From the NCBI RefSeq assembly GCF_044324875.1, contig NZ_CP172188.1: a stretch of DNA of 64,000 nucleotides. The stretch is one strand, 5' to 3'. The number at the start of each line of letters is the position of its first letter. The stretch's first letter is position 1. Positions 8,013 to 56,977 of this stretch are shown here, piece after piece. The stretch is from Escherichia coli. GTDB lineage: Bacteria; Pseudomonadota; Gammaproteobacteria; Enterobacterales; Enterobacteriaceae. The notes under the pieces are model-generated. The model did not search any database and was not told the origin of the DNA. It saw nothing but the letters and a program-made list of their open reading frames with translations. A program made the translations under genes and the position numbers.

Positions 8013-8048
8013 CAGATAAGGAGCGGCCCCAACCGGGGCCGAATTTGA

Positions 8049-8483: not shown

Positions 8484-8485
8484 CC

Positions 8486-12451: not shown

Positions 12452-12528
12452 GATGGTGTAGCTCAGTAGGATAGAGCAGCAGCCTTCTAAGCTGTCGGTC
12501 GGTGGTTCGAATCCACCCACCATCGCCA
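12452..12528 (+). tRNA. tRNA-Arg (anticodon TCT)
   Basis: 77 nt; 7-bp acceptor stem GATGGTG/CACCATC, D-arm GCTC..GAGC, anticodon loop CTTCTAA, T-arm GGTGG TTCGAAT CCACC, encoded CCA. Confidence 0.9.
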
Positions 12529-12530
12529 AT

Positions 12531-12606
12531 GCCGGTTTAGCTCAGTTGGTAGAGCGCCTGCCTTGTAAGCAGGATGTCAGCGGTTCGAGTCCGTTAACCG
12601 GCACCA
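12531..12606 (+). tRNA. tRNA-Thr (anticodon TGT)
   Basis: 76 nt; acceptor GCCGGTT/AACCGGC, anticodon loop CTTGTAA, T-loop TTCGAGT, encoded CCA; P1 also carries a tRNA-Thr. Confidence 0.9.
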
Positions 12607-12608
12607 AC

Positions 12609-12694
12609 ACAACAGGTAAGGGTATTTTGCGACGTCGGAGATCGCCGTGCTTGGCAGAGGGTTCGAATCCCTACGAAGTACCCTTACCGTTGTG
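12609..12694 (+). other. tRNA-like remnant / structured element: 15-16 bp stem enclosing a T-loop-like GGTTCGAATCC
   Basis: ACAACAGGTAAGGGTA ... TACCCTTACCGTTGTG inverted repeat; no canonical D or anticodon arm identifiable. Confidence 0.25.
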
Positions 12695-13071
12695 ATGAAG
12701 TGCAGCTCTTTGAAGCAACCAGAAGATAAGCATCTGGCTTCACAACATAAACCGCAGGAACGACCAATAAACGGTAGTCCGTATGGAGAATACCCCGTTG
12801 AGGAAGAGGCCTGGCCGGAACCGTAACCGGCACTACAACGTTGAGAACACTGACGTAACGGGGTCATATCCCAATCTACGAATAAATGTTGCGTTGCAGC
12901 GTGACAACCAGTGTTCTCAACGTTGTGGTGGATTCGCAGACTGATGCGATAGCTTTCTTGGATGTTAGGGAAATGCGGCCGCAAACCTTCCCTTTCGCGA
13001 GCGGTGATCGTCCGTAGTCCTAATTGGCTGCACCGTATGCCGGAGATTCAGTACCGGCCACCACAACGGCC

Positions 13072-13158
13072 GGAGAGTAGGGAGCATGGTGCTCAAGCGG
13101 TCTTGAAAACCGTCCCATTGCGCAAGCGATGATGGTTCGATTCCATTACTCTCCGCCA
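13072..13158 (+). tRNA. atypical type-II (long variable arm) tRNA-like gene, anticodon possibly TGA (Ser-like); may be a pseudo-tRNA
   Basis: 87 nt; acceptor GGAGAGT/ACTCTCC, anticodon stem-loop GCGGT-CTTGAAA-ACCGT, T-arm GATGG TTCGATT CCATT, discriminator G + CCA; D-arm irregular. Confidence 0.4.
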
Positions 13159-13561
13159 TCGCAACGTTAAGAGTATTTGGCTAATTAAGCGAATGCCGGA
13201 AGCAGAACCGGATCAACAAATGCGTACAGGCGTCATCGCCGCCCAGCCAGCCAAGTGCTCTTACCATTGCGGTGAATGCGGCTAAGCGCACGCGGAACAG
13301 TTAAAACAATCCTGCTTACTAAACATCCCGGCGTTAATTGTTAACTGGTTAACGTCACCTGGAGGCACCAGGCACCGCAATCTAACAGCAATGGCGTTTT
13401 GTCTTAAAAGGTAGCTGCAAGTGATGGATTTTTGGGCCTTTGCCGATAAGAACCCTGGTTGGACATTTTTATTTCTGCTGGTGGTTGCATATGGGATCGA
13501 GCAAGCGGCAAAAGCCTTACGCGGTTCTGGCAAAAAGCGTAAGCGGAATTAACAGTAATCT

Positions 13562-13637
13562 GGCCCTTTAGCTCAGTGGTTAGAGCTGGCGACTCATAAT
13601 CGCACGGTCACCGGTTCAAGTCCGGTAGGGGCCACCA
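13562..13637 (+). tRNA. tRNA with CAT anticodon, most likely tRNA-Ile2 (lysidine type) rather than elongator Met
   Basis: 76 nt; GGCCCTT acceptor, anticodon loop CTCATAA, T-loop TTCAAGT; resembles enterobacterial ileX-type tRNA as I recall it; P1 also encodes a tRNA-Ile. Confidence 0.85.
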
Positions 13638-25822: not shown

Positions 25823-26074
25823 TTATTTTTTTGGTGCATCCTCGTTCTGATACACCGGATCGCTCCCTTTTGGCAACTGGAGGCTTAACTGCCGGTAGTG
25901 CCGTAGCCGTTCCATGAAATAGGCGCGCAGGTTTTCCGGTTGCTCACGGGCCACCTGCTCTGCAATCACAGGTATATTCAGCCGTTCTTTGTAAGCAACG
26001 CCGCTGGCGGCAAGGTCTACGTTCACCTTGTCTCGCTCTTCCTGGCTTTTAGCTGCTATATTTCGATCTGACAC
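25823..26074 (-). CDS. hot: Hot (homolog of DNA polymerase III theta subunit)
   Basis: 83 aa; [43 protein letters not shown] parallels E. coli HolE. Confidence 0.75.
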
Positions 26075-26106
26075 AAGAAACCTCCAGGAGTTAGTGGATC
26101 AGGCAC

Positions 26107-26457
26107 ATGCACAATAACGTTCTCAATGTTAGCCGTTCAATTCAGACAATCAGAGACTGCACCAGTGTGGTGGCATCAATCCCATTGCGAAACAGCATAG
26201 ACGAACTGCAAATTCGTGTATTGAATCCGAATCAGGCTAATAAGCAATTGCGCTTTATTTTGACGCTGAAAAGTGAAACAGAGGGGATAAAGCACAGCGT
26301 AAAAGTGTTTTCTGAGGCCATTCTGCTTAATGGGAAGCTCCGGCATCTGGTAAGGCCAGAACGTCAATATCCTGACGTCCTGGCGCGTGAAAAAGACCTT
26401 CTTTCTGAAGTTCAGGATAGGGTGATCGATTTCGTCAAATGCTATCCCCTGCATTGA
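26107..26457 (+). CDS. hypothetical protein
   Basis: 116-aa ORF, ATG start. Confidence 0.4.
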   Translation: MHNNVLNVSRSIQTIRDCTSVVASIPLRNSIDELQIRVLNPNQANKQLRFILTLKSETEGIKHSVKVFSEAILLNGKLRHLVRPERQYPDVLAREKDLLSEVQDRVIDFVKCYPLH

Positions 26458-26726
26458 GGGCAGGTGTTCCCTTCCGCAAAGTAGGGAAAACTGCTATCAA
26501 GTTCATCACACCATCTGCGATGGTCGTAGCACCAAAACGCCTCCCACGGCGCACGGAAATACTTCATCCACCAGGACACCCGATCAGGTATATCTGCTGG
26601 TGGCAGTTCTTCTGGCAATAATTTGCCTGATAATTCCCTTTCCGCCCGCGACAGCATTTTTTTGAGGCTCGCGTTCTCTTTTTCAAGCTCATCTACGCGC
26701 ACCTGTAATTCAGCTTTCGTTGGCAT
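26442..26726 (-). CDS. hypothetical protein (start set at internal Met)
   Basis: ORF 26442..26807; likely start MPTKAELQ...; short coiled-coil then Cys/Trp-rich C-terminus. Confidence 0.35.
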   Translation of the reverse strand: MPTKAELQVRVDELEKENASLKKMLSRAERELSGKLLPEELPPADIPDRVSWWMKYFRAPWEAFWCYDHRRWCDELDSSFPYFAEGNTCPQCRG

Positions 26727-27582
26727 GGTCCGCCTCATGCTTTTCAGCCACCAGCGGCAATAAAGCCCTGGCCATCTTATGAACCAATAATGCATCAATA
26801 ATGCCAAGCGTATGCCCCGGCTTAATGTTTAATGCCGCCTCAAGGTGACACCTTTCCAAGCCACTTTTCTCGGCTTGTTTATGATGATCTGGTGTAATAA
26901 CGTCGCCCAAAACACGGCTAATTCTTTCTCGTAATTGCTGGGTGCCCGCACACTTGATCGCTGTATCGTGGAGACGGTTAACCAGTTCGCGATAAACATG
27001 CGGTTTAATGCGGATACGTTCACCGGTGACGCCCTTTCCTGGCACTGGCACCGAACTATCCGGAATATCCGGATAGTTGCCAGCCAGTCTACGCAAAACA
27101 GCCTTAATTGCATCAATACGGTCATCATCAACTTTTTCTACAATATTGGAATTTAAATACTTCGAAGCCTTGCTATGCCAATCGCTGGTTTTAGGGTCTT
27201 GTCCATCCATCAAACGCCAAGCTTCAGCGATTAACTCATAGCCAGTAACAGTGGCTTCCTGCGCATCACCAATCAGTTGTGTGATCTCTCTTTCAAGCAT
27301 GCTTAGAGCGTTAGGCATTGGTTTTTCTTCCGGTACTACTGGAACGGGGGGAGCGGCGTAGACCTCAATAATTCCATTATCAATAGGCCATTCTCCATCC
27401 TTGAGGTAGTCACTTGTGCCGTCAACTTGCTGTTCTGCAATGTGGAATGCACCTATTGGTTTTGCTTCCAGCGATGCCAGAGCAATTTCATAAGCACGGC
27501 GCTCAATATTGTCTCTCACATCCAGGCTACCTATGCGCTCTTTGATTTCTTTAATCAGTTCTTTGTCGGTTAAAGTGGTCAT
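26710..27582 (-). CDS. hypothetical protein; shares a module with the IS-disrupted gene at 36077..36796
   Basis: 290 aa; segment LHDTAIKCAGTQQLRERISRVL matches LRDVAIECHGTDQLRARLSNTL in 36077..36796. Confidence 0.5.
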   Translation of the reverse strand: MTTLTDKELIKEIKERIGSLDVRDNIERRAYEIALASLEAKPIGAFHIAEQQVDGTSDYLKDGEWPIDNGIIEVYAAPPVPVVPEEKPMPNALSMLEREITQLIGDAQEATVTGYELIAEAWRLMDGQDPKTSDWHSKASKYLNSNIVEKVDDDRIDAIKAVLRRLAGNYPDIPDSSVPVPGKGVTGERIRIKPHVYRELVNRLHDTAIKCAGTQQLRERISRVLGDVITPDHHKQAEKSGLERCHLEAALNIKPGHTLGIIDALLVHKMARALLPLVAEKHEADHANES

Positions 27583-27896
27583 TTGTTAATCCTCAAAACT
27601 TTATGCCCGGGCGCAAAAGCACGCGTTTTGTCTTTGCTTATTCGCCAGCCATCCTTGCGCGCCTCTTTTGCACAGCCAGCCCATGACGTACCGATATACT
27701 CACCGAAGTCTGGTGATTGATATTTACCATTTGTACACTGGCGACAATCACAGTAGAGATGCATGGTGTAACTTGCGGCAATAGCCATATCAGGCTCCTT
27801 TAGTGCGCAAGTGGTTTTTCCAGCGGTTTTGCGCCGCGCTGCGCTTATCTTTGATTCCCTCTCTGGCAATTCCAGAAAATGAAAACAACACCACAC
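27579..27896 (-). CDS. hypothetical Cys-rich protein
   Basis: 105 aa; YCDCRQC and WAGC motifs. Confidence 0.4.
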   Translation of the reverse strand: MWCCFHFLELPERESKISAARRKTAGKTTCALKEPDMAIAASYTMHLYCDCRQCTNGKYQSPDFGEYIGTSWAGCAKEARKDGWRISKDKTRAFAPGHKVLRINK

Positions 27897-28326
27897 AGCG
27901 ATTGCTAACTCTCAACCACTGGCTGGGATAGCAAAGTCTGTATACACGGGAGATAAGCATCTTAGCTTTACGGTTTTTCATCGCACTGCGTACCCCTTCT
28001 CTCGTCTGTTACGCGATGTGGTGGGTTTATAGTTAAATGCGAATACCACCCTACCAAACATGCCGATCACCGCCCGTTTGTGATTGCTGATTGGTAGCTT
28101 CTCGTACCCCGTCGAACGCGATAAAAGAAGTAATTTTGCTTTACGGTTTTTCATCGTTTTGCTCTCCTGCGTCTCTTTGCTGCTCGTCGTGCCGCTGCAA
28201 TACCGGTATGGCGGCGCTTTGGTGCCGGGATGATGTTGTCAGCCATCAGTACATGCGGCTTTGCAATTAGCGCAGAAGCCCAAAAACGAGTCGGGTATGG
28301 TAATAAACCGATAAACGCGACACGCA

Positions 28327-29037
28327 TTACGCACCTCCTTTGATGCGAATGCCTGCGGCGCGTGGCACATTAACTTCCACGATGCGCACTGTTGGTTTGT
28401 ACATCTCAATCGCTGTCAGCCAGTCAGCTCCTGTCATGCGCTTTTCCGCATCGCCATTAGTCCACTTAACCGGTACACCAATAGACTTCATCGCGATTTC
28501 TATTTCCCCGGCGATGGCGCTTTTTCCGCAACCAGTAAAACCAGATACAACGACAAGAACTTCGCCTTTGGCTGGTTTTATTTCCCGTGCTTCCTGCCCT
28601 GATTTGCGCAGCAAAACAGCGTACTTTAATGCGTCCTGGGCTTTCTGAAATTTCAGTGCATAGTCAGTGGCGATTTTCTCCAGTTCAGCAATACGCTTAC
28701 TCCCATCCGAGATAACACCTTCGTAATACTCACGCTGCTCGTTGAGTTTTGATTTTGCCAACTCCAGTTGTTTTGTTAGTTCCGCAATACGGCAAACATC
28801 GTTGATACGCGTTTCCTCTAATGCGTTGATCTCATCCAGCAGCGCCAGCACGGTAGCCGGATTGGCTGCGGCGATGAATTCAGCATCACGAGATTCGTTT
28901 TCACTGAACACCATAGCTATTTGCTCATGGTTTATGCCGTCAGTGGAGTAAATCTCATCGTCGAATTCAACAGCCCACTTACCTTTCGTAGCCTTCTCTG
29001 CCGCCTCACGCAGTGCCTGATAGTCAATCTTGCTCAC
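28327..29037 (-). CDS. Ea22/Ead-like family protein (paralog 1)
   Basis: 236 aa; N-terminus MSKIDYQALREAAEKATKGKW typical of lambdoid Ea22-like proteins. Confidence 0.6.
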   Translation of the reverse strand: MSKIDYQALREAAEKATKGKWAVEFDDEIYSTDGINHEQIAMVFSENESRDAEFIAAANPATVLALLDEINALEETRINDVCRIAELTKQLELAKSKLNEQREYYEGVISDGSKRIAELEKIATDYALKFQKAQDALKYAVLLRKSGQEAREIKPAKGEVLVVVSGFTGCGKSAIAGEIEIAMKSIGVPVKWTNGDAEKRMTGADWLTAIEMYKPTVRIVEVNVPRAAGIRIKGGA

Positions 29038-29714
29038 TGGTTGCCTCCTTTGCGAAGCTGGGCAGCAAAGTCAACTAACCACTCAGTCATTTCAACCTTC
29101 CCTACCAGGTCTGAACCAGGGTGCATACAGCAATCACTCTGCACCGCTTTGAAATCCTTATACTCATATTCTTGGGCCACCAGATTTTTTGCAGCTTCTA
29201 TAGCAGCATCCACCCCCTGCGCCCGGACTTCAGCCAGGAAAGCATCAGTGGTTGGCGTTTCAGGTATCTGTCTCCTCATCCGTTCTATTGCATGATTGAA
29301 CCCGAAGTCTTCCGCGAGAGATACGTCATCCATATTGTCATTGTCATCCTCAATATCCCGTGATTCTGGAATTGCAGACTTTATTCCCGCATTCTCCGCT
29401 GCCAGCGCCGCGCACTTGGCTTCAAGAGCGGCAACCACTTCCTGATGGTCTTTGTACTTAACGTATGAGCCGGAGATGTCATCACCTTCGGTGTTTAGCC
29501 ATGCGTCATTGCAATTCACTGCGTAGGTTCTGATGCTGATGCTCTCCCGCCCCTGACAGACGCCAGGCCAGTCAATAAAGTATCCGCAATGCCTACCCTC
29601 AGACGTGCGCGCAGGATAAATGCCGTTATGACCCGGCAAAATATATGCTACCCATTCATCTTGCGTTGCCTGTTCCGCCGCCTCGCGCAGTTCTTGATAG
29701 TTAATTTTGCTCAC
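29034..29714 (-). CDS. Ea22/Ead-like family protein (paralog 2, mosaic)
   Basis: 226 aa; N-terminus MSKINYQELREAAEQATQDEW; C-terminal module [17 protein letters not shown]...QLRKGGNQ shared with 32990..33757. Confidence 0.6.
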   Translation of the reverse strand: MSKINYQELREAAEQATQDEWVAYILPGHNGIYPARTSEGRHCGYFIDWPGVCQGRESISIRTYAVNCNDAWLNTEGDDISGSYVKYKDHQEVVAALEAKCAALAAENAGIKSAIPESRDIEDDNDNMDDVSLAEDFGFNHAIERMRRQIPETPTTDAFLAEVRAQGVDAAIEAAKNLVAQEYEYKDFKAVQSDCCMHPGSDLVGKVEMTEWLVDFAAQLRKGGNQ

Positions 29715-30402
29715 TGGTTGCCCCCTGAATACGCTTAAACTCGATTACCCACACCCAAGGATTAGCGTTCCAACTATCTTCGCCATAAATTGATTTCCAT
29801 AGGCTACGGAAACTTGGGTAATGCTTATCGCCAATGAGGGTCGATTCTGTTGGTGCGCCCTCAGCCCTTGCATCGCATTCGCTGATATCGTTCAACCGCT
29901 CAACGCGCACGTTGGTAATTTCCAGAAGAATGCGCGATGCCCAGCGCGGCATGTGAATTGATGGACACCACCCGCCATCAAATTTTTCATTCACAGTGTG
30001 AGGTTTCCAGTCGGCATCATCGGGTATCGACCACAAGCCGTAATCACCCGGCTTTTGCTCACAACTGGCCCGATAAATCCTTGCTGCGTTCTTCTCATCG
30101 CCACGACAAAGGTTGTCGTTCCAGTCCACACTGCAACCATCCTCATTGCCTAATATCGCCCACGCCTCACGGACCCATATGCGATCACCAACGTTACCGA
30201 ACGGGCATAAACCATGTTCAGGCGCATCCATAACGTGGGTATAGACACCATTGCGTTTCTTTGTCGGTTTACGGATAACCAGGCAGTTATCGGCCCTGAC
30301 ATTTTTTACAGGTCGGCGAGTCTGCGTCTTCCTTCCTTCGAGGATGGCCCTGACCATCTCATCGTTAAAAATCATCCCGCATTCTTTCATTTTTTGATCC
30401 AC
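29701..30402 (-). CDS. hypothetical phage protein, possibly ASCH-domain-like
   Basis: N-terminal MIFNDEMVRAILEGRKTQTRRP resembles ASCH-type proteins; from memory only. Confidence 0.35.
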   Translation of the reverse strand: MDQKMKECGMIFNDEMVRAILEGRKTQTRRPVKNVRADNCLVIRKPTKKRNGVYTHVMDAPEHGLCPFGNVGDRIWVREAWAILGNEDGCSVDWNDNLCRGDEKNAARIYRASCEQKPGDYGLWSIPDDADWKPHTVNEKFDGGWCPSIHMPRWASRILLEITNVRVERLNDISECDARAEGAPTESTLIGDKHYPSFRSLWKSIYGEDSWNANPWVWVIEFKRIQGATSEQN

Positions 30403-33757: not shown

Positions 33758-34065
33758 TCGTTGCAGATGAAAACGTTGTCCCCGGCAATTAACTTTTTAA
33801 CGGTGTGCTGGGATTTGTTGCAGAAGCTGCAATAAAGCGTTGGACTGGCTGATACGGATGGTGCGCCAGATGTCAGCCGCGCGATGTCGTTCTTGCGACG
33901 CAATATCACACGGCTGCACTCGACCAGCATCTCCGGGGATATCTCCTCCTCCGTAGCGAGCGTTTCTAATCGTTCGAGTATGTGGAAGGCTTTTTCCTGG
34001 GTAATCCTGGGTAATTCAGCGTTACGCTCTGCCAGTTGTGCGGGCGTTAAACCTTCAGACTTCAT
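33703..34065 (-). CDS. protein with ClpX-type N-terminal zinc-binding-domain homology (stand-alone ZBD)
   Basis: 120 aa; C-terminal [39 protein letters not shown] parallels ClpX [39 protein letters not shown]. Confidence 0.6.
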
Positions 34066-34372
34066 ACACTCTCCTTTCGAAATAAACGTACTGATTAATC
34101 ATGCCCAGGGGCATTTCGAGTTTTTCCGCGATCTCACGGCGGGGAACACCACACTGATGAAGCTGCCGTGCCAGTTCTATATCGCTCTGCCGGTATTTGG
34201 CTGACGGATGAAAGTCACCTTTCAGAATCATTCTGATCCCCAGTTCCCGCGCTTTAGTCCTGACAGCATCTCCGGTACGCCCGATCAGCCTCCCTATACT
34301 CTCGACTGTCATAGTTCCGGCACACTGGCGGAGTATCATGATTTCTGCCCTTCTCCATCCCCGCCATCTCAC
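34055..34372 (-). CDS. putative HTH DNA-binding protein
   Basis: 105 aa; two HTH-like segments ([24 protein letters not shown]; [22 protein letters not shown]). Confidence 0.4.
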
Positions 34373-34519
34373 GCTGACATCCTCTTAGACATAAACTCAA
34401 CAAAACGAACTGCATCTTCAGAAACAACGCCGCATGACTTCAGCGAAAAACCGCCGAGAACCCTCGCCCAATGCGGGCGGGGAGGAAAGGCGGAAAAGCC
34501 CGAAGGGCTTTAAAAAAAA

Positions 34520-34945
34520 TCATTCCGGCGTTGACTGGTTTTGAACGTAAGCCCTGAGTGTTTCAATCGTTGCTCCTCCGGTACTACATGCAAAGTAGGC
34601 TCTCGACCAAAGCAAGCCTGTTTTGCTCTGTGTTCGTAAATGTGTGTTTTGTTGACGTAGCAGACGTGACGATACTGATTTCAAATTATTCACCATTACG
34701 CTGACTGCCAGCTTTGGCGGATAGGCAACCAGTAGATGTACATGATCTGCTTCTCCATCCATTTCAAGAATTTCGCATTCAAGTTTTGCAGCAGCGGAAC
34801 AAAAAGCTTCCCGTAGTTGCTCTATCATGCAGCCGTCAAAAAGTTTTCTGCGGTATTTTGTAGTGAAAATTAAATGCACAACGAGCTTACTCACGCTGTG
34901 ACGTTTCCGAAGGAATCCCTCAAGGGATTCATGCTGTTCGCTCAA
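34520..34945 (-). CDS. tnpA: IS200/IS605 transposase TnpA (HUH Y1)
   Basis: 141 aa; HUH motif DHVHLLV and catalytic Tyr region SRAYFACSTGG. Confidence 0.9.
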   Translation of the reverse strand: MSEQHESLEGFLRKRHSVSKLVVHLIFTTKYRRKLFDGCMIEQLREAFCSAAAKLECEILEMDGEADHVHLLVAYPPKLAVSVMVNNLKSVSSRLLRQQNTHLRTQSKTGLLWSRAYFACSTGGATIETLRAYVQNQSTPE

Positions 34946-35001
34946 TTGAAAAAACGCCTCAATTTGTTAAAATGATTGAATAATATCAATGAGCGCTGAG
35001 T

Positions 35002-36180
35002 ATGTTAAGAGCGACAAAAGTACGCATATATCCCACTACTGAACAGGCTGAGTATCTCAATGCCCAGTTCGGTGCGGTACGTTTTGCGTACAATAAAGCT
35101 CTTCACATCAAAAAACATGCTTACCAGCGATACGGGGTGAATTTAAGTCCGCGCAAAGATTTAAAGCCGTTGCTGTCTATAGCGAAGAAGTCCCGTAAGT
35201 ATGCCTGGCTCAAAGAGTTTGATTCAATGGCATTGCAACAGGCAGTAATTAATCTTGATGCGGCATTTTCCAACTTTTTTAATCCGAAGCTGAAAGCACG
35301 GTTCCCGACGTTTAAACGTAAACACGGGAGACAATCGAGCTATCACTGCACCGGAATCAAGGTGCTGGATGATGCCATTAAGATCCCTAAACTGAATCTG
35401 CCGATAAAGGCGCGTATACACCGTGTAATTACGGGAAAAGTAACGAGCATAACAATTACTCGCAATGCCGCTGGGGAATATCACGCATCCATCCTTTGTG
35501 ATGACGGTATTCCCGCGCCAGAGAAACCCACGTATCTGGAAGAAGAAAAGATTACTGGTGTGGACATGGGATTAACAGATTATGCCATCAAATCGGATGG
35601 TAATAAGGTTGGTAATCCTCGTCATCTCATCAATGCCAGTCGTAATCTGCGACGCAAACAAAAAGCGTTATCCCGCAAGCAAAAGGGAAGCGCGAACCGT
35701 AAAAAGGCCAGAATCCGTCTGGCAGCGTTACACGAACGGGTGGCTAATGCCCGTGCTGATTTTCAACACAAGCTCTCTCGTGCAATTGTTGACGAAAACC
35801 AAGCGGTAATTGTCGAGACGCTGAAAACAGCCAACATGATGAAAAACCACAATCTGGCAAGAGCGATAGGTGATGCAGGCTGGCATAGCTTCATCACAAA
35901 GCTGGAGTACAAGGCAGCGGAAAAAGGCGTTCACCTGGTAAAACTCGACCAGTGGTTTGCCAGTTCGAAAACGTGCCATTGTTGTGGTTACAAAATGCCG
36001 GAAATGCCGCTTCATAAACGCATCTGGCGATGCCCTGAATGTGGAGCAGAGCACGACCGCGATATCAATGCGGCGCTCAATATCCGGCAAAAAGGAATAC
36101 TGGAACTAAAGGCGGCGGGACTCGTCGTTTCTGTCCATGGAGGCCAGCGTAAATCCGTCGAACAGACGGTAGCGGCCTGA
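35002..36180 (+). CDS. tnpB: TnpB (OrfB; RNA-guided RuvC-like endonuclease)
   Basis: 392 aa; N-terminal MLRATKVRIYPTTEQAEYLNAQFGAVRFAYNKAL; C-terminal zinc finger CHCCGYK...CPECG and RuvC-III-like DRDINAALNI. Confidence 0.9.
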   Translation: MLRATKVRIYPTTEQAEYLNAQFGAVRFAYNKALHIKKHAYQRYGVNLSPRKDLKPLLSIAKKSRKYAWLKEFDSMALQQAVINLDAAFSNFFNPKLKARFPTFKRKHGRQSSYHCTGIKVLDDAIKIPKLNLPIKARIHRVITGKVTSITITRNAAGEYHASILCDDGIPAPEKPTYLEEEKITGVDMGLTDYAIKSDGNKVGNPRHLINASRNLRRKQKALSRKQKGSANRKKARIRLAALHERVANARADFQHKLSRAIVDENQAVIVETLKTANMMKNHNLARAIGDAGWHSFITKLEYKAAEKGVHLVKLDQWFASSKTCHCCGYKMPEMPLHKRIWRCPECGAEHDRDINAALNIRQKGILELKAAGLVVSVHGGQRKSVEQTVAA

Positions 36181-36796
36181 GAAGTGGGAAGCCTCGCCCG
36201 ACAGGGCGGGGAGCAGTCACATAATTCATTGCGTCATTAGGTAGCGGATTAGTTGGTTCGGCATTTGCCAGGGATTGAGATAAACGCGTGATTAATTTGA
36301 CCATTCTCCGCTGCCGGAGGTTGTATCCTTCAGCTAAAGACAGGTAACTGGAAAGGGTATTGCTTAAGCGGGCGCGAAGCTGATCCGTGCCGTGACATTC
36401 AATAGCAACATCACGTAACGCATCGACCAGTTCACGGTAAAGATGCGCTGCCATTCTGCAATCTGTGTCAGATGGTGCTTCATAAATTACCGTCAACCCC
36501 AGTTTTTCAGCCAGAGCGTGTTCTGCACGTGCTCCTGCGGACACATCCCATCCCTTAAGCAGATAGATCGCATCAGCAGAACGCACCATTGCCAGGCAAA
36601 TATCCATGTATTCACTCTGGCAAAGGCCACCAGGTAACACAGCTGGATTCAGAACGATATGCCCTTCAGACATCAGCTCGCTCGCTTTCGCATTAAACGC
36701 CGCACGGTTGTAGTCTGGATAACCAGTCATCGGCCCCGCGATGTAAATTTTCAAAACACGTTTCACCATCAAAATTTCCCCAAAATCGTGACGCAA
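36077..36796 (-). pseudogene. DUF4406 / nucleoside 2-deoxyribosyltransferase-like gene with 3' end replaced by IS sequence
   Basis: N-terminal KIYIAGPMTGYPDYN Rossmann-like motif; the last ~50 codons (below ~36226) read into the IS right end. Confidence 0.45.
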
Positions 36797-36961
36797 AACA
36801 TAAGCACTGCGAAAAGCTCAATACCAAGCTCAAGTAGCGCCAACGCCCCGAAAAACAACACATAGAACAGGCCAATCTCATTCACAGATGGCTGGTGGAT
36901 CGCACTTAAAGCTATAAGCATCATGTCCTCCAAACAGTTATCAGGAATGATATTAATGTTT

Positions 36962-36992
36962 TGTGTTAGAAAATCAATTTTGAATATCTAAC
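36962..36992. promoter_or_regulatory. operator-like motif pair upstream of ref
   Basis: TGTGTTAGAAAATCAATTTTG plus inverted ATATCTAAC; 50-80 nt upstream of ref. Confidence 0.5.
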
Positions 36993-37041
36993 TGTTTTGA
37001 TCAATCATAGAAAAATAGCTGAAAAGTAAGAGGCAGCCATC

Positions 37042-37620
37042 ATGCAGAAACAGAGCTATTGGGAGAAACAGAGACAAAAAGCCATGCAAAAATTGGCTGA
37101 CCCAGCCTGGCGAGAGGAACAAAGGGCAAAGCGCCTTCAACAAGCTCAACGCCAGCAGCAGCGAGCGAGAGAAAAAGCCGCATCGCCTGAATATCGGCAA
37201 AAGAAAATTGAAAAAGCAAAGCAATATGAACAGCGGAGAAAAGATAAAGCTGTATCCGCTCCGCCCAAAAAAACACGCACGTCACGCGGCCTGAAGGGCA
37301 GATCACTCACAGCCGATGAACGCCGGATACAGACCGCTATCGGTACTCTCCCCTGCATTGCCTGCCATATTCACGGGCAACATAGCCCAGTGGTATCCCT
37401 GCACCATATCTTCGGGAGAACGGCAGAGAACGCACATAAATATGTCCTCCCTTTGTGTAAATGGCACCACCAGTACGCAGCGCCAGCCGAGGTCCGAGAA
37501 CAATATCCCTGGCTGGTCCCTGTTCATGCTGATGGAAAAATAGGCGGAAAAGCAGATTTCATACGGCACAATGCCGATGAAATGGCGTTGTATCAGATGG
37601 CGATTGAATTAATAAATTAG
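37042..37620 (+). CDS. ref: Ref recombination-enhancement HNH-family endonuclease
   Basis: 192 aa; basic N-terminus then SRGLKGRSLTADERRIQTAIGTLPCIACHIHG ... CKWHHQYAAPAEVREQYPWLVPVHADG, matching P1 Ref as I recall it. Confidence 0.85.
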   Translation: MQKQSYWEKQRQKAMQKLADPAWREEQRAKRLQQAQRQQQRAREKAASPEYRQKKIEKAKQYEQRRKDKAVSAPPKKTRTSRGLKGRSLTADERRIQTAIGTLPCIACHIHGQHSPVVSLHHIFGRTAENAHKYVLPLCKWHHQYAAPAEVREQYPWLVPVHADGKIGGKADFIRHNADEMALYQMAIELIN

Positions 37621-41290: not shown

Positions 41291-41530
41291 TTCATTAACT
41301 CCATACTTTACCATCTTAGCCGCGAGCGCGGTCCCTAAAACCATTAACTTCACTGCACCGTTCCTTCATGCAATCAAAATGACTTTTATGTTATAAAAAT
41401 AATCAGCCAAATCAACATGATTTAGGCCAAATGCGTATTCCGCTCTATTCGATCACGGATTGGCATCGAAGTCCGATCAGCGATTCGCATCCATTCGATC
41501 AACCGGGAACTTAACTTTTTCTACCGCTTT

Positions 41531-42286
41531 TTAACGCGTTTTTTCGCTGCTTTCCACTACCGGGGGATTTTTCCTCAGTGACTCTCCCTGAAGGACCACT
41601 CGGTGTGAGTTATGTACCAGTCTGTCCAGGATGGCATCTGCTGTTGTTGGGTTCTCCATCAGACCATGCCATTTATCTACCGGGAACTGGCTTACCACTA
41701 TCGTGCTGCTTTGTCCGTAACGATCCTCTATGAGCTCCAGAAGGTCATTACACTGGGCGTTACTTAACTGTTCCAGCCCCAGATCGTCCAGGATTAGAAC
41801 CTGTATTTTTTGCAACTGTTTCAGATATTTCAGCCAGCTGCCATCAACACGTCCCTGAGCCAGTTGTTCCAGTAATCGCCCGGTTCTACAGTACCGGACG
41901 CTGTGTTTCTGTCGACATGCCTGTTCGCCCAGCGCATTGGCTATCCAGCTCTTGCCACATCCTGTCGGACCGGTTATCAGCAGGTTTTTCCTGTGGGTTA
42001 TGTAGTGGCCGTTCAGCAGTTCTCTCATCTGTTCAGCCCGCAGACCTCTTGAGGCCGGATAGCGCAGCCCTTCCGGTGTTGCCTGGTATTTCAGGCCGGC
42101 ATTTTTTCTCAACCGTGCCACACGGCTGTTTTCCCTGCTCAGAAGCTCGTCATCAACCAGCAGCGTCAGCCTTTCCTCGAACGACAGTTCGTCGTAGGTC
42201 TGAGGCGTTTCCCGCTGCCGTATCAGGCTCCCGGCCATCGCCGGGAGTTTCAGTTGGGTCAGTTTGTTTAACAGGTTATCACTCAT
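41531..42286 (-). CDS. istB: IS21 helper ATPase IstB
   Basis: Walker A LLITGPTGCGKS, Walker B VLILDDLG; start set at MSDNLL. Confidence 0.88.
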   Translation of the reverse strand: MSDNLLNKLTQLKLPAMAGSLIRQRETPQTYDELSFEERLTLLVDDELLSRENSRVARLRKNAGLKYQATPEGLRYPASRGLRAEQMRELLNGHYITHRKNLLITGPTGCGKSWIANALGEQACRQKHSVRYCRTGRLLEQLAQGRVDGSWLKYLKQLQKIQVLILDDLGLEQLSNAQCNDLLELIEDRYGQSSTIVVSQFPVDKWHGLMENPTTADAILDRLVHNSHRVVLQGESLRKNPPVVESSEKTR

Positions 42287-42302
42287 ACTGTTGTTCCTTC
42301 TG

Positions 42303-43838
42303 TCAGTGGTAGTAGCCCGGACCACGCAGGTTTTCATGCTCTGAAGCATATGCCGGATGTTGTTCGCCCTGGCGGGATAATGGAAGCTCCAGGTTCTCCC
42401 GATGGTGACGCAGCAGATTGTCGATAAAGCGTCTGTCAGGGGCGTTATAGTGCAGGGCAACGTAACAGGCCTTTTCCAGCCGTTCCGGGCCGTATTTTTT
42501 CTGAAGTGCCAGCAGCCCCAGAACTGCACGATAAGCCAGTTCCGGATGGGGTTTTGCCTTCAGCATGGATTCAACCACCCGGCCTGTGGACGGGCCCGTA
42601 CGTTTTCCCTGCTCGATCAGGCGTTCCGGTGTCCATGTCCCGTGCTGCCGGTGGCGCTCTGGCATGTGAAGCGGATTGGTTGTGTGTTTATATTCATGTG
42701 TGCTGCGCGGATGTTGCGCCACACACTGCCCCTTGTGCCAGAGCTGTACCACCGACTGCCCCGCCTTCAGTGACAGACGCTGACCGACCAGTTCGTGTGG
42801 AACGGAGTACCAGTGACGGGCATATTCAACGTGGTAGTCAGGGCCAACCTTCACAGCTTTGTATTCCGTGTATTCATAAGGTGCCAGAGGCAGCGGAGAG
42901 AGTGCTGGCGCATCCAGTATGCGGAAGCGTTCTGCACGGGTTTGATTGCCGTACCCCTTCATTGGCCGGTTATTCATGTCTGTCAGTAACTCCCTAAGGC
43001 GCGCATTCAGCGCCCTGAGCGTGTGGAAGGTTTCATTACGGATGCGGGCAAGAAGCCATCGTTCAACGATGAGGACGCCGTTTTCTGCTTTTGGTTTATC
43101 TTTAGGTTTGCGTGGTCGGGCCGGGATGATAACCGTGCCATAGTGCTCAGCCAGTGCCTGATAACTGTCGTTGATGACAGGCTCATATCGATCGGCCTTT
43201 TTCACTGCGCTTCTGAGGTTATCGGGGATGAGCAGCTTCGGTACGCCGCCCAGGAAGGTCAGGCAACGGCTGTGGGCATTTAACCATGACATCATGTCCT
43301 GACCTTCGCACGCTTCAACGTAGGTATAGTTGGACGCCCCCATTACGGCCACGAAGATTGCCACGCGGCGTATCTCACCGGTGTCCGGATTAATAACAGG
43401 AACCGTAGGACCACAGAAGTCGATAAAAAGCTTTTCGCCGGCACGATGCTCCTGGCGCATGGAGAGACGTCGCGTTTTTTTCCACTCCCGGTAGCAACGG
43501 CAGAAGTGCGAGTATCCCATCGCTTTGTTACCCGCCTGTGCCTTGTATTCCATCCACAACAGTTGCCGCGTCACACCTGGTTTTCTCATTTCCGTATCGA
43601 AGTACAACATGTCAGGCATTACAAGCTCTGATGCAAAGGTGTCTTTGGGCGGAAAAATGAGTTTCTCCAGCGTGTCATGGGATATATCAGCAGGTAATGG
43701 CCATGACAGAGAAGAGGCTTTGAAGCGGGCAAGAACCTCAAAAACGGTTGAGGCGCTGATGTGTAACGTCAGTCCGATACAACGGTTAGTCAGCTTCTTG
43801 TCGAACTTGAGCTGAAGGATCTTAAAACAGGTTTCCAT
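42303..43838 (-). CDS. istA: IS21 transposase IstA
   Basis: 511 aa from METCFKIL; N-terminal HTH and DDE-type core. Confidence 0.85.
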   Translation of the reverse strand: METCFKILQLKFDKKLTNRCIGLTLHISASTVFEVLARFKASSLSWPLPADISHDTLEKLIFPPKDTFASELVMPDMLYFDTEMRKPGVTRQLLWMEYKAQAGNKAMGYSHFCRCYREWKKTRRLSMRQEHRAGEKLFIDFCGPTVPVINPDTGEIRRVAIFVAVMGASNYTYVEACEGQDMMSWLNAHSRCLTFLGGVPKLLIPDNLRSAVKKADRYEPVINDSYQALAEHYGTVIIPARPRKPKDKPKAENGVLIVERWLLARIRNETFHTLRALNARLRELLTDMNNRPMKGYGNQTRAERFRILDAPALSPLPLAPYEYTEYKAVKVGPDYHVEYARHWYSVPHELVGQRLSLKAGQSVVQLWHKGQCVAQHPRSTHEYKHTTNPLHMPERHRQHGTWTPERLIEQGKRTGPSTGRVVESMLKAKPHPELAYRAVLGLLALQKKYGPERLEKACYVALHYNAPDRRFIDNLLRHHRENLELPLSRQGEQHPAYASEHENLRGPGYYH

Positions 43839-43941
43839 AGTGCTCCTGGATTTTCTCTTTCTGGACATTGACGTCTCCACTGGTTTAAACACGGCAATGG
43901 AGACTGTGGTGAAAAGAGTTAATTCCCGGAGTGACTGGCAG

Positions 43942-44060
43942 GATGCCAATCAATGATCGGAAGCATGCCAAATCGTGATCGATTGTGATGCCAAACTGTG
44001 ATCGGAGATGGATGCCAAATCATGATCGATTCGAATGCCAAACTGCGATCGATTCAGATG
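43942..44060. repeat. five tandem ~23-bp repeats at the IS21-family end
   Basis: GATGCCAATCAATGATCGG / CATGCCAAATCGTGATCG / GATGCCAAACTGTGATCGG / GATGCCAAATCATGATCG / AATGCCAAACTGCGATCG. Confidence 0.7.
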
Positions 44061-44281
44061 CCATTTTGCAGCCAAATTTCTGTCAAAAAATAAAATCCAC
44101 AAAAAGTGGTTGACACTATTTTGGAAATCACAAACTGCACATAATCCATCGCGCTAACGGCTCCCGTTGAAGGTTCTTTTGACGATTAACTTTCAGCCGA
44201 AGCGCGGTAGGGAGTCATAACGCCAAAGCAGGCCGCCATGTGCGGCCTTTTTTTGTATCCGTCATCCGTGGAGGAAGGACA

Positions 44282-46265: not shown

Positions 46266-47448
46266 TTTCCTGAAAAACCAGGACGGGCGCTATATCACTG
46301 ACGGCCTGTCCTCTAAGGACTTCACGCGTTTATTCGACCTTATCAGGAAAGAACAAACCCGTAAGCGCCGGCAAGCTCACCGGACGCTGACGCCAGGTAG
46401 ACTGAGGAACAAATCCGCCGAAGATATTCTCAAGTTAGGGAAGAAAAAAGGCGGCACGTTCTTCACGCGAGACGACCTGAAAGGTTTCGAAAAGCTACGG
46501 AGTAAAACGCGCGAAAAATATGACAGCAAGACGGCTGGCATCACATACGCCCAGCTGGTGGCATCCAGCCAGGCAATCGATATTAAGCGTGCAAATAACG
46601 CCGTGGATGACGGATCTGGTATCAAAAGAGCTACACCCGTATCTCTTCGCCACAATGTGATTAATATCCGCGTAGAAGCATCGGATATATCCGTCCACCA
46701 GCACCATATCGTCCGGATACGCTTTGAAGAATGGGATCAGATGGTTGATGATATCGCAGAAGACGATAAATCAGCTCTCAAAATCACTAAATCACTGTGC
46801 GCCGGGCGAGTGTCTTTCGATTGTGACTGTGGTCGTCATCAATACTGGTATCGTTACATCGCCACTGCGGGTAACTTTGCCCTGGCACCGCCAAAAGAAT
46901 ACGCCTATCCAAAAGTTCGCAACCCGAAGCTGCAAGGCGTCGCCTGTAAACACGTGATCCACTCAATGACGCGGTTACAGTCCGCCAGTTGGCAAATGAG
47001 TATTGCTCGTGCGCTACAAAAGGCTGCAACGCAAATTGCATTTGGTGACGATCGCCGCCGTACAACCAAACACTTCTCAAAAGAAGACGAGAAGGAGTTT
47101 AATCGCAATCGTAGCAGTAAAACAAACGTTGAAGCCGCCAAACGCGAATGGAGGCTCTATCAGAAGCGCCAGGCAGCTTTAAGTACAAAACTGGCAAAGG
47201 ACAACGGCAATATCGACAAGCTACGTGACCAATTGACCAGGGCCAGAAAGTTGTCAGACGCACAGAAAAAACGGGCGGCTGCAAAAGAAGCGGCCTTGCA
47301 ACGTGAGAAACAGAAAAATAAGGAACTTCAGCAACGCCTTGCCGATCAGTTCGCACTGAAGAAGCAGGCGTTCATTGATGCGCTTGTCATGGCTGGAACA
47401 CCACCAGCACAAGCTGAAAAAATGTTCATGGAGTACATAAAAAATTAA
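46258..47448 (+). CDS. hypothetical protein with SWIM-like zinc-finger motif and basic coiled-coil C-terminus
   Basis: 396 aa; C-x-C ... C-x-H pattern in FDCDCGRHQYW ... ACKHVIH. Confidence 0.45.
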   Translation: MPDFLKNQDGRYITDGLSSKDFTRLFDLIRKEQTRKRRQAHRTLTPGRLRNKSAEDILKLGKKKGGTFFTRDDLKGFEKLRSKTREKYDSKTAGITYAQLVASSQAIDIKRANNAVDDGSGIKRATPVSLRHNVINIRVEASDISVHQHHIVRIRFEEWDQMVDDIAEDDKSALKITKSLCAGRVSFDCDCGRHQYWYRYIATAGNFALAPPKEYAYPKVRNPKLQGVACKHVIHSMTRLQSASWQMSIARALQKAATQIAFGDDRRRTTKHFSKEDEKEFNRNRSSKTNVEAAKREWRLYQKRQAALSTKLAKDNGNIDKLRDQLTRARKLSDAQKKRAAAKEAALQREKQKNKELQQRLADQFALKKQAFIDALVMAGTPPAQAEKMFMEYIKN

Positions 47449-47459
47449 CAAAGGTGGGT

Positions 47460-48200
47460 TTATCCCACCTTTTTATTAGCATCGCATTTAATTTTTTCAA
47501 GTGAATCAGAAAGCTTTGAGAGAATCTCCTCAAGTGTCTCCCTGTCATTTGTATCACCCGAACGAAAAGATGAGTTTTTCACGGCAGTAAAAAATTCATA
47601 AAAATCATCCAACGAATTTAAGCTCTCACCTTTCTCTCTATATAATTTAATAACATGACGGATATCGCTATCCACACATTCAATCTGTTCCCTAACTTCT
47701 TCTACCTTTCTTTTTAATGATTCATGTTCTTCTTTTTCTTTTTCAAGACGCTCTTCAACGTCTTTCCGTTTCTTAGTAAGATCATTAATGTCTCTGTTAA
47801 TTTTTCTTACTTGTTCTTTTTTGTCTTCAATTTTATCTATCTCTCTCAATTTAGCGTATATTGTGCCAGTCACCATAGAAATTAGTAAAGTTAACATTGG
47901 GGCTAATATTGAAGCCACAACACCATAAATAAAAGGCAAGACAAAATGAGCTACGAATGAGGGTACAAAAACATTCCCAAATAATGGAATCTTTTCCCCA
48001 ACAAACACCATAGATAATGTATACATAACATCATCTTTTGACTTCAACAATATAAATATATCTCGCCAGTTAGAAATTAAAAATGAAATAAAAATGTAGG
48101 CAAAAACCTTATTAAACAACTTATCTTTTACAGCATCTTCTATCAGATTTTGGGCGGATGATTTTTCATTTTCCTTTTCTATTGATGAATCAGTGCTCAT
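47460..48200 (-). CDS. membrane protein with cytoplasmic coiled-coil domain (AT-rich cargo)
   Basis: 246 aa; transmembrane stretches (FAYIFISFLISNW; FVAHFVLPFIYGVVASILAPMLTLLISMV) then E/K-rich heptad region. Confidence 0.5.
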   Translation of the reverse strand: MSTDSSIEKENEKSSAQNLIEDAVKDKLFNKVFAYIFISFLISNWRDIFILLKSKDDVMYTLSMVFVGEKIPLFGNVFVPSFVAHFVLPFIYGVVASILAPMLTLLISMVTGTIYAKLREIDKIEDKKEQVRKINRDINDLTKKRKDVEERLEKEKEEHESLKRKVEEVREQIECVDSDIRHVIKLYREKGESLNSLDDFYEFFTAVKNSSFRSGDTNDRETLEEILSKLSDSLEKIKCDANKKVG

Positions 48201-48260
48201 ATAATCACCAAATATTTAAACCTTGATTTTATGTAAAATCGGCCCTCCAGACTGCCAAAC

Positions 48261-55315: not shown

Positions 55316-56977
55316 TTAACCTAACTTCGCCCAGGTATCACGCAGCCCAACGGTGCGGTTAAATACCGGTTTTTCCGCCGTAGAATGGCGGCTATCGAGG
55401 CAGAAGTAACCTTCACGCTCAAACTGGAATGCTTTACCCGCAACCGCATCTTTCAGCGACGGTTCAGCAAAGCCCTGTTTGATCACCAGCGATTCCGGGT
55501 TAATCACCGACAGGAAATCATCCGCAGCACCTGGGTTAGGCACGCTGAACAGACGATCGTACAGGCGGATTTCAACCGGCAGCGCATGTGCCGCGCTCAC
55601 CCAGTGAATAACGCCTTTCACTTTACGACCATCTGCCGGATCTTTGCTTAAGGTGTCGGCGTCATAAGTACAGAAGATGGTGGTGATATTGCCTTCGGCA
55701 TCTTTCTCCACGCGTTCAGCCTTAATGACGTAAGCATTACGCAGACGCACTTCTTTACCCAGCACCAGACGTTTGTACTGCTTGTTAGCTTCTTCGCGGA
55801 AATCGGCGCGGTCGATCCAAATCTCACCGCTAAACGGCACCTGACGGCTACCCATTTCCGGTTTGTTCGGATGGTTCGGCATGGTGACCATTTCGCCTTC
55901 GCCCTGGTAGTTTTCGATAACCAGTTTCACCGGATCGATAACCGCCATTGCGCGCGGCGCATTTTCGTTGAGATCTTCACGGATGCAGGATTCCAGCGAC
56001 GCCATCTCAATGGTGTTGTCCTGCTTGGTCACGCCGATGCGTTTGCAGAACTCACGAATAGAAGCCGCAGTGTAACCACGACGACGCAGACCGGAAATGG
56101 TCGGCATACGCGGGTCATCCCAGCCTTCAACGTGTTTGTCGGTCACCAGCAGGTTCAGCTTACGCTTGGACATCACGGTGTATTCCAGATTCAGGCGCGA
56201 GAATTCGTACTGGCGCGGGTGAACAGGAATGGTGATGTTGTCCAGCACCCAGTCGTACAGGCGACGGTTGTCCTGGAACTCAAGCGTACACAGAGAGTGC
56301 GTAATACCTTCCAGCGCATCGCTGATGCAATGGGTGAAGTCGTACATCGGGTAGATGCACCACTTGTTGCCAGTCTGGTGGTGTTCAGCAAATTTAATGC
56401 GGTACAGCACCGGATCGCGCATTACGATAAATGGCGACGCCATGTCGATTTTCGCACGCAGGCAGGCTTTACCTTCTTCAAAACCACCGGCACGCATTTT
56501 TTCGAACAGCGCCAGGTTCTCTTCAACGCTGCGATCGCGGTACGGGCTGTTTTTACCCGGCTGCGTCAGGGTGCCGCGGTATTCGCGGATCTGTTCCGGC
56601 GTCAGTTCGTCAACATACGCCAGGCCTTTGTTGATCAGTTCAACAGCATAGGCGTGGAGCTGATCAAAATAATCGGAGGAGTAACGGATGTTGCCAGACC
56701 AGTGAAAACCTAACCATTCAACGTCGTTTTTAATCGACTCGACGTACTCGATATCTTCTTTTACCGGGTTAGTGTCGTCGAAACGCAGGTTGCACTGGCC
56801 TTTATAGTCCTGGGCGATCCCGAAGTTCAGGCAGATAGATTTCGCATGACCAATATGCAGATAGCCATTCGGTTCCGGCGGGAAACGGGTATGTACTGTG
56901 GTGTGCTTACCACTGGCCAGATCTTCATCGATGATCTGACGAATAAAGTTAGTCGGGCGGGCTTCTGCCTCACTCAT
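55316..56977 (-). CDS. glnS: glutaminyl-tRNA synthetase
   Basis: 553 aa; class I HIGH (HIGHAKS) and KMSKS-type (VMSKRK) motifs; essentially colinear with enterobacterial GlnRS. Confidence 0.95.

Follow-up and report, generated by a model that had tools for sequence, protein, structure and literature searches.

The tnpA and tnpB genes of IS608 from Helicobacter pylori are co-oriented. The cleavage sites of IS608 are set by tetranucleotides located 5' of the hairpin feet (PMC3201880), and for ISDra2 from Deinococcus radiodurans a reRNA architecture with a flank-derived guide has been described, in which the TAM follows the logic of the target motif (PMC8612924). IS609-type tnpB elements, annotated as 'insQ / IS609 transposase', occur in plasmids of E. 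coli, Salmonella and E. albertii and in P1-like phage-plasmids; in one paper, IS609 TnpB is named only among purified orthologues and its TAM is not given. ISEc46 from E. coli is also present, as a tnpA-less copy, in phage RCS47. The window analyzed here, a whole stretch of 64,000 nucleotides of E. coli DNA, contains a complete IS200/IS605-family element of 1,777 bp whose 'top' strand corresponds to the + strand. It is highly probable that an intact and probably active element of this family, related to IS609 and ISEc46, was inserted here by 'peel and paste' into a DUF4406 gene of a D6/pF719-4-like phage-plasmid. The preliminary description of this DNA had proposed an IS200/IS605 insertion carrying tnpA and tnpB, which is confirmed by Pfam matches to Y1_Tnp and to TnpB domains, and had placed its left end at 34440, within 4 bp of the true position.

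The boundaries of the element were set to the base by two comparisons, one with a second copy and one with the empty site. E. coli TUM9803 carries a copy that is identical at 1777/1777 positions and interrupts norW; the norW flanks, once joined, form an intact ORF of 377 aa (NorW), and this insertion follows the same motif (GTTTCAG|). The exact empty site, ...GACTTCAG|ATAATTCATTGCG..., was found in plasmid pF719-4 and in at least 40 other phage-plasmids of ~90 kb. pF719-4 reads ...GCATGACTTCAGATAATTCATTGCG..., and the window sequence, when the element is removed, is identical to it across the joint, base for base. A 60-mer placed across the restored joint matched 54 PLSDB plasmids (44 at ≥99% identity, at least 40 at 100%), always within a DUF4406 gene, and in phage-plasmid D6 the IS is likewise missing. 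The insertions in the phage-plasmid and in norW are independent of each other and both lie 3' of TTCAG without target duplication. The insertion in the window split the gene with neither duplication of the target nor loss of host DNA. The comparison with uninterrupted homologues proposed earlier has thereby fixed the insertion point to the base and the target motif as TCAG/TTCAG. The junctions expected from excision are a donor joint TTCAG|ATAATTC, i.e. GACTTCAG|ATAATTCATT, and an RE-LE circle junction GTCAC|CGAAAAA, i.e. GCAGTCAC|CGAAAAACC.

Table 1. Features of the element and of the interrupted gene (window coordinates).
Feature	Position	Strand	Basis or details
IS200/IS605 element	34444..36220	+	Ends CGAAAAACC...GCAGTCAC; TUM9803 copy and empty sites
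Target and left cleavage site TTCAG (core TCAG 34440..34443)	34439..34443	+	Abuts left end; predicted TnpB TAM
GAAC, candidate left 'guide' tetranucleotide	34458..34461	+	Four bases 5' of left hairpin foot
Left subterminal imperfect palindrome CCTCGCCC-AATGC-GGGCGGGG	34462..34482	+	Read from sequence; 18 nt from left cleavage point
Second conserved hairpin AAAGCCC-GAA-GGGCTTT	34495..34511	.	Read from sequence; just past tnpA stop
tnpA, 141-aa Y1 HUH transposase	34520..34945	-	H68-V-H70, catalytic Y133
Divergent promoter-like sites	34946..35008	.	+ TTGAAA-16-TAAAAT; - TTAACA-17-TATTAT
tnpB, 392 aa, RNA-guided endonuclease family	35002..36180	+	RuvC D188/E272/D354; zinc finger C325, C328, C344, C347
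Predicted ωRNA scaffold (tnpB 3' end and right end)	36095..36220	+	Conservation, fold; 5' limit approximate
Right-end signals	36188..36220	+	GAAG 36188..36191; palindrome CCTCGCCC-GACA-GGGCGGGG 36192..36211; 9-nt tail ending in TCAC
Right cleavage site TCAC	36217..36220	+	End of 9-nt tail
Predicted 16-nt guide template ATAATTCATTGCGTCA	36221..36236	+	Flank directly 3' of right end; placed by ISDra2 reRNA architecture
DUF4406 gene, 5' part, codons 1-183 (MVKRV...AMNY)	36221..36769	-	Matches 207-aa pF719-4 and 203-aa D6 proteins
DUF4406 gene, stranded 3' part, codons 184-207 and stop	34369..34443	-	Frame restored on removing 34444..36220
IS-derived tail, 47 codons and stop (VTAPRPVG...FAGY)	36077..36220	-	Chimeric 239-codon ORF; ORF list and translation

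The element has no terminal inverted repeats, its termini being CGAAAA... and ...GTCAC, and subterminal imperfect palindromes with N4/5 loops are found at both ends. The left palindrome is kept in all relatives compared, which are inserted after TCAG or TTAG. Five relatives inserted after TCAG have GAAC and three inserted after TTAG have AAAC in front of the left hairpin, a pattern that parallels the IS608 rule, and as these eight elements belong to two lineages the correlation may equal a single evolutionary event. At the right end, GAAG, the two arms of the stem and GTCAC are the same in 8/8 relatives, and the signals as a whole are near-invariant, with a few substitutions confined to the 9-nt tail and the loop of the hairpin. 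The second hairpin retains its stem and varies in its loop among relatives; it may weakly terminate minus-strand transcription, and a terminator scan did not call it.

TnpA matched the Pfam profile Y1_Tnp over its full length (positions 1-121/121, E=1.2e-38) as well as NCBIfam transpos_IS200 (E=4.7e-40, 136.7 bits, cutoff 55), and in the alignment with the solved structure of IS608 TnpA (2A6M, E=2.5e-21) the HUH motifs are aligned and Y133 lies opposite Y127. TnpB contains the three Pfam domains HTH_OrfB_IS605, OrfB_IS605, and Cas12f1-like_TNB and matched NCBIfam guided_TnpB (E=2.9e-106, 356 bits, cutoff 100). When compared with the solved TnpB of ISDra2 (8EXA, E=4e-79), its RuvC residues lie opposite D191/E278/D361 and its zinc-ribbon cysteines align with C331, C334, C351, and C354. 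As judged from these alignments, all catalytic residues of TnpA and TnpB are retained, and from what is known of its family TnpB would be an RNA-guided nuclease. The two genes are divergent, with a 56-bp spacer between them, and the promoter-like sites in this spacer, which score 10/12 each in a consensus scan in a region where the total of such sites is not above that of shuffles, are only suggestive.

An ωRNA is predicted to be formed from the 3' end of tnpB and the right end. In this region, among four relatives with an overall identity of ~76–78%, 82–88% of the columns are invariant, compared to ~42–87%, mostly 50–75%, elsewhere in the element. Conservation peaks in the last ~110–125 nt and includes third codon positions; the hairpins are conserved, with variation limited to loops or G-U changes. 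The fold of the tnpB 3' end together with the right end, which had been suggested as a check, gave z=-2.9. An Rfam search returned only a sub-threshold match to HgcC (36121..36227, E=0.98, 16.7 bits, gathering score 50). Among eight relatives, true compensatory changes in the ωRNA helices are essentially absent, the region being too conserved, and the four 'compensatory' pairs reported all lie in upstream coding sequence; therefore the predicted structure rests on conservation and thermodynamics. By analogy with ISDra2, the TAM would be TCAG/TTCAG and the guide ATAATTCATTGCGTCA, the 5' end of the ωRNA and the length of the guide being estimated in the same way. This agrees with the preliminary description, which had expected a readable flank-derived guide and a motif of 4–5 nt. 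TAM and guide match the uninterrupted allele exactly. When TCAG plus guide was searched in the window, the sole match was at the RE junction, which has TCAC and thus differs from the target only at the last base of the TAM.

The host of the element is a P1/D6-like (D6/pF719-4-like) phage-plasmid, and the interrupted gene is a small accessory gene of 207 codons, broken between codons 183 and 184. Its stranded 24-codon 3' part is identical to the C-terminus of the pF719-4 protein, and the next gene starts at a GTG (34372) that overlaps the stop codon of this part. The minus-strand ORF 36077..36796 matches Pfam DUF4406 (PF14359, E=2.2e-33, 114.9 bits, cutoff 22) with residues 16–105 of its 239 aa, covering profile positions 2–91 of 91, so that the domain lies entirely upstream of the break. 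The ORF then continues into an IS-derived tail which is antisense to the 3' end of tnpB. About 50 IS-derived last codons had been predicted for it and 47 are counted in the translation; the disruption of a DUF4406-like gene was likewise recognized correctly, as intact homologues carry a different C-terminus and the VTAPRPVG... tail is absent from them. Following the annotation of D6 and pF719-4, the true start is probably the ATG at 36769 (MVKRV...) and not the TTG at 36796. With these data the gene model of the interrupted gene is corrected. The restored protein was assigned to no family in an NCBIfam scan.

A different reading, contained in the preliminary description, is that the insertion was accompanied by a deletion which replaced the 3' end of the DUF4406 gene, and that the paralogous ORF 26710..27582 indicates the original C-terminus. 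Two observations could favor it, namely that 58 bp of D6 (L001 3076..3133) beside the junction were left unaligned by blastn and that the similarity to the product of 26710..27582 is real (20/41 identical residues, E=5e-11 in a single comparison). However, the D6 stretch is merely diverged, as translation shows the same C-terminus to the left of the IS (LKSCNVVSEDGVLLVRRSSA in D6), and the similarity to the paralog covers residues 104–144, located before the break at 183 and retained in the window, with none after it. The paralog, for which no Pfam family was found, is unrelated to the DUF4406 protein past this 41-residue module and was rejected as a guide to a lost C-terminus. Loss of the 3' end is refuted by the surviving last 24 codons and by the exact joint with pF719-4, of which the 60-mer is also present in PLSDB, and a deletion is thus extremely improbable.

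An assembly chimera, in which an IS copy was mis-joined into a phage-plasmid contig, might be considered because IS elements often cause mis-assembly and because the same insertion was not found in INPHARED phages, in PLSDB, or in 5,426 complete E. coli genomes. Both junctions, however, are at the expected base and the flanks join perfectly; as a mis-join would not meet collinear flanks with site-specific precision on both sides, the probability of a chimera is practically nil. The element could also be a dead relic, a fixed and immobile copy whose TnpB is no longer a nuclease (for example, domesticated or only a regulator). Such a state would fit with tnpA-less non-autonomous relatives being far commoner than full-length ones and with only one other full-length copy of at least 95% identity existing in the 5,426 complete E. 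coli genomes. Against it stand the intactness of both ORFs, with every catalytic residue kept, and of both ends, the 100% identity of two copies at unrelated sites, from which recent activity is deduced, and the absence of the insertion from 54/54 plasmids with the same site, which argues for a recent event. A relic is therefore unlikely, and from its sequence the element is intact and probably active.

The insertion into the DUF4406 gene would have followed the single-strand 'peel and paste' route that is the mode of this family. According to the IS608 paradigm, TnpA, with its HUH motif and Y133, would bind the two subterminal hairpins and locate its cleavage sites, TCAG at the left end and TCAC at the right end, via the GAAC and GAAG 5' of the respective hairpins. 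According to the ISDra2 paradigm, TnpB with its RuvC residues would load an ωRNA whose transcription begins at about 36095, crosses the right end and continues into the flank. Guide and TAM would then target the IS-free allele, that is, the donor joint, and the occupied site with its TCAC would be spared; cutting of the empty allele would favor re-copying of the IS. Genes downstream of the insertion, beginning with that at 34372, may be expressed at a lower level through lost translational coupling and through transcription that now crosses the IS. The predicted TAM and guide occur base-exact in the uninterrupted DUF4406 allele of dozens of ~90-kb phage-plasmids from E. coli, Salmonella, and Shigella. 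A tentative and rather doubtful idea is that the IS-borne TnpB-ωRNA works as a device for drive or interference between sibling phage-plasmids. If it were true, an IS-bearing phage-plasmid that enters a cell already occupied by an IS-free relative, or that replicates lytically after excision, would cut the empty allele, and this allele would be converted to the IS-bearing form or the competitor eliminated. The value of the locus lies mostly in annotation, since base-exact ends, a target motif and a predicted guide are provided for a little-documented enterobacterial element with tnpA and tnpB. It might also be a convenient natural test case for retention or homing mediated by TnpB on a phage-plasmid, as many sequenced relatives carry perfect natural targets, and for the switch of target between TCAG and TTAG that separates close relatives.

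The window element, a relative of IS609 and ISEc46, represents a known type in textbook form and involves no new principle. Another IS of pF719-4 (7379..8715), considered as a possible relative, has no nucleotide similarity. With IS609-type elements the element of the window shares the ends CGAAAA...GCAGTCAC, the TCAG target, and the right-end/ωRNA region, and the TnpB proteins are 89–92% identical. In contrast, IS609-type copies are only ~1,336 bp long and lack tnpA, aligning in two pieces with 75% query coverage and 89–91% DNA identity; the window element, judged by its sequence, represents their full-length, autonomous form. ISEc46 has the same divergent order of tnpA and tnpB, the hairpins and a near-identical right end, with 78% identity in DNA and 87% and 82% amino acid identity in TnpA and TnpB, respectively. 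Full-length copies of the ISEc46 type, however, follow TTAG and have AAAC 5' of the left hairpin, whereas TCAG and GAAC are found here. As in IS608, a Y1 HUH TnpA, subterminal imperfect palindromes, and insertion 3' of a tetranucleotide without duplication are observed, and the cleavage sites lie 18 nt upstream of the hairpin at the left end (against 19 for IS608) and 9–10 nt downstream of it at the right end. The IS608 target is TTAC rather than TCAG, its two genes are not divergent, and the TnpA proteins are only distant relatives. The alignment of TnpB with that of ISDra2 spans the full length and includes the RuvC triad and four cysteines, and in both elements the guide RNA comes, or is predicted to come, from the tnpB 3' end and the right end; compared with ISDra2, the ωRNA of the window element is predicted from sequence and its TAM would be TCAG/TTCAG instead of TTGAT.

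The boundaries of the IS200/IS605-family element (34444..36220, 1,777 bp) were obtained from three independent comparisons, with phage D6, with E. coli TUM9803 and with the E. coli phage-plasmid pF719-4. D6 is devoid of the element, and the DNA to which both flanks align there (window 34016..34374 and 36222..37200) is contiguous. In TUM9803 a 1777/1777 identical copy resides in norW, flanked by GAGTTTCAG|CGAAAAACC... on the left and ...GCAGTCAC|CGGCGTG on the right, and joining its flanks restores an intact NorW of 377 aa. pF719-4, 97.9% identical to the window flanks, reads ...GCATGACTTCAGATAATTCATTGCGTCATTAGG... at the empty site, and the window without 34444..36220 is identical to it over the joint. 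When a 60-mer joint probe (30 nt per flank) was searched in PLSDB, 54 plasmids were matched (44 with at least 99% identity), always within a DUF4406-annotated gene; these plasmids, from E. coli, Salmonella and Shigella, are all non-mobilizable and nearly all of about 90 kb (one listed has 74.5 kb). As the three comparisons and the empty sites agree, the insertion is precise, 3' of TTCAG, without duplication or deletion. The same insertion was not found in the phage collection, PLSDB or 5,426 complete E. coli genomes.

Features of the element and of the interrupted DUF4406 gene (window coordinates)
Feature	Position	Strand	Remark
tnpA ORF, 141 codons	34520..34945	minus	ORF listing and reading of 34300..37100
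tnpB ORF, 392 codons	35002..36180	plus	ORF listing and reading of 34300..37100
Chimeric DUF4406 ORF, 239 codons	36077..36796	minus	antisense overlap with 3' end of 392-codon ORF
Left end start	34444		
Tetranucleotide GAAC, left	34458..34461		
Left imperfect palindrome CCTCGCCC-AATGC-GGGCGGGG	34462..34482		18 nt from cleavage point
Tetranucleotide GAAG, right	36188..36191		
Right palindrome CCTCGCCC-GACA-GGGCGGGG	36192..36211		
9-nt right tail AGCAGTCAC			terminates element at 36220
DUF4406 5' part	36221..36769	minus	reads into right end, 47 IS-encoded codons (VTAPRPVG...FAGY), stop 36077
DUF4406 3' part, orphaned but intact	34369..34443	minus	24 residues encoded; left of IS

The uninterrupted homologues in pF719-4 (207 codons) and D6 (203 codons) start with MVKRV, corresponding to ATG 36769 in the window, and show that the IS separates codon 183 (TAT, Tyr) from codon 184 (CTG, Leu), the DUF4406 domain being wholly upstream of the break. 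TTG 36796 is probably not the true start, because at ATG 36769 the start overlaps with the stop codon of the preceding ORF. The preliminary description was right that the gene is disrupted and that about 50 terminal codons of the chimera are IS-derived, and the comparison with uninterrupted homologues that it proposed gave the exact insertion point and the motif. Its statement that the 3' end had been replaced was mistaken, as the 3' part survives and the pF719-4 joint is exact. The stop of this orphan overlaps the GTG start (34372) of the next gene, from which we infer that translational coupling to downstream genes was lost.

It had also been claimed that a paralog at 26710..27582 shows the intact C-terminus. 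In BLASTP its 290-aa product, for which no Pfam family was found, gave a single match to the restored DUF4406 protein (residues 190-230 versus 104-144; 20/41 identical, E=5e-11) and no similarity beyond residue 144 of the latter. This 41-residue module cannot reveal the missing C-terminus because it precedes the break at residue 183, and the claim is wrong; the orphan fragment, pF719-4 and D6 show the true C-terminus. The module (49% identity; window 26892..27014 and 36338..36460, both minus) occurs in two otherwise unrelated proteins, which suggests domain shuffling among accessory genes.

Both transposon proteins were recognized by Pfam and NCBIfam, in agreement with the initial assignment. 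The 141-codon ORF matches Y1_Tnp (E=1.2e-38) and transpos_IS200 (136.7 bits, cutoff 55); the 392-codon ORF contains HTH_OrfB_IS605, OrfB_IS605 and Cas12f1-like_TNB and matches guided_TnpB (356 bits, cutoff 100); the 239-codon ORF matches DUF4406 at residues 16-105 (E=2.2e-33). TnpA retains H68-V-H70 and Y133, the latter aligned to Y127 of IS608. TnpB aligns end-to-end to ISDra2 TnpB (8EXA, E=4e-79), with D188/E272/D354 and all four zinc-ribbon cysteines retained. The 56-bp tnpA-tnpB spacer contains one promoter-like site per strand (10/12 matches each), the region's total being no higher than in shuffles. Another such site, CCGACA-16-CATAAT (9/12; 36198..36225, plus), crosses the right-end junction towards the flank and is probably a chance match. 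Directly past the tnpA stop, within the left end, lies a hairpin (AAAGCCC-GAA-GGGCTTT, 34495..34511) whose stem is conserved and loop variable in ISEc46-type relatives; terminator or TnpA-related roles are candidates.

ISDra2 TnpB binds an RNA of about 150 nt that spans the 3' end of tnpB together with the right end, with the last ~16 nt derived from the flank; its TAM (target-adjacent motif) equals the transposon target, and the donor joint left by excision is the proposed natural substrate (PMC8612924). Among four relatives (~76-78% identical overall), conservation peaks over the final ~110-125 nt (82-88% invariant columns versus about 42-87%, mostly 50-75%, elsewhere in the element) and extends to synonymous sites in the 3' end of tnpB. 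The folding proposed earlier yielded three conserved hairpins in the consensus fold, with changes only in loops or G-U-compatible, and z=-2.9 for the single sequence. Rfam returned only an HgcC match far under the gathering score (36121..36227, plus; 16.7 bits, E=0.98), which coincides exactly with the predicted guide RNA and right-end hairpin. By analogy with ISDra2, and as anticipated, a flank-derived guide can be predicted, ATAATTCATTGCGTCA (36221..36236), with TAM TCAG/TTCAG. The only TAM-plus-guide-like place in the window is the occupied junction, where TCAC instead of TCAG would spare the allele that carries the IS. pF719-4-type plasmids match the predicted target perfectly and D6 has mismatches at guide positions 1, 13 and 16; TnpB might possibly target IS-free sibling phage-plasmids.

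Along 53.7 of 64 kb, the window and pF719-4 are collinear, with identity mostly 89-99% and 77-87% in a few shorter blocks. pF719-4 is a D6/P1-like phage-plasmid whose gene products include pacase, capsid, tail, Ref, Icd/Ant, ParM and RepB. Mosaic segments absent from pF719-4 include 26063..27456, 27847..29855, 41433..44070 and 47437..48247. pF719-4 carries a different IS (7379..8715; 1,337 bp, 402-aa 'transposase', own hairpin ends, after GGATAT|), without nucleotide similarity to the window element, and its uninterrupted site is at 18424|18425 in the window. A 553-codon ORF (55316..56977, minus) is the counterpart of a pF719-4 gene with the annotation glnS (glutamine--tRNA ligase), which makes it an aminoacyl-tRNA synthetase gene carried by a phage-plasmid; four tRNA genes (Arg-TCT, Thr-TGT, Ser-TGA, Met-CAT) cluster at 12452..13637 (plus).

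Full-length copies of at least 95% identity are rare, TUM9803 having the sole one among the 5,426 E. coli genomes, already annotated by PGAP as IS200/IS605 transposase and RNA-guided endonuclease. The nearest relatives (~1,336 bp, 89-91% DNA identity) lack tnpA; they are carried by IncI-type plasmids, where some bear the annotation 'IS609 transposase insQ', and by P1-like phage-plasmids. Such derivatives are found at recurring positions, beside the gene for the late-promoter activator in P1-like plasmids (E. albertii pEA50_2), beside repL in phage RCS47 and beside psiA on IncI plasmids.

ISEc46 shares 78% DNA identity with the window element; at the amino acid level the identity is 87% for TnpA and 82% for TnpB. 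In IS608, TTAC is found 19 nt away on the 5' side of the left hairpin and TCAA 10 nt away on the 3' side of the right one, and cleavage sites are recognized by the tetranucleotide preceding each hairpin foot (PMC3201880), a layout mirrored by the ends of the window element. In eight related copies, representing two lineages only, the 5 copies located 3' of TCAG have GAAC and the 3 copies located 3' of TTAG have AAAC, a pairing that fits the IS608 recognition rule. The analysis bears out the element, the gene disruption and the possibility of reading off a target and a predicted guide, all now placed at single-base resolution; as a canonical member of a well-understood family, the locus shows no departure from the known mechanism.
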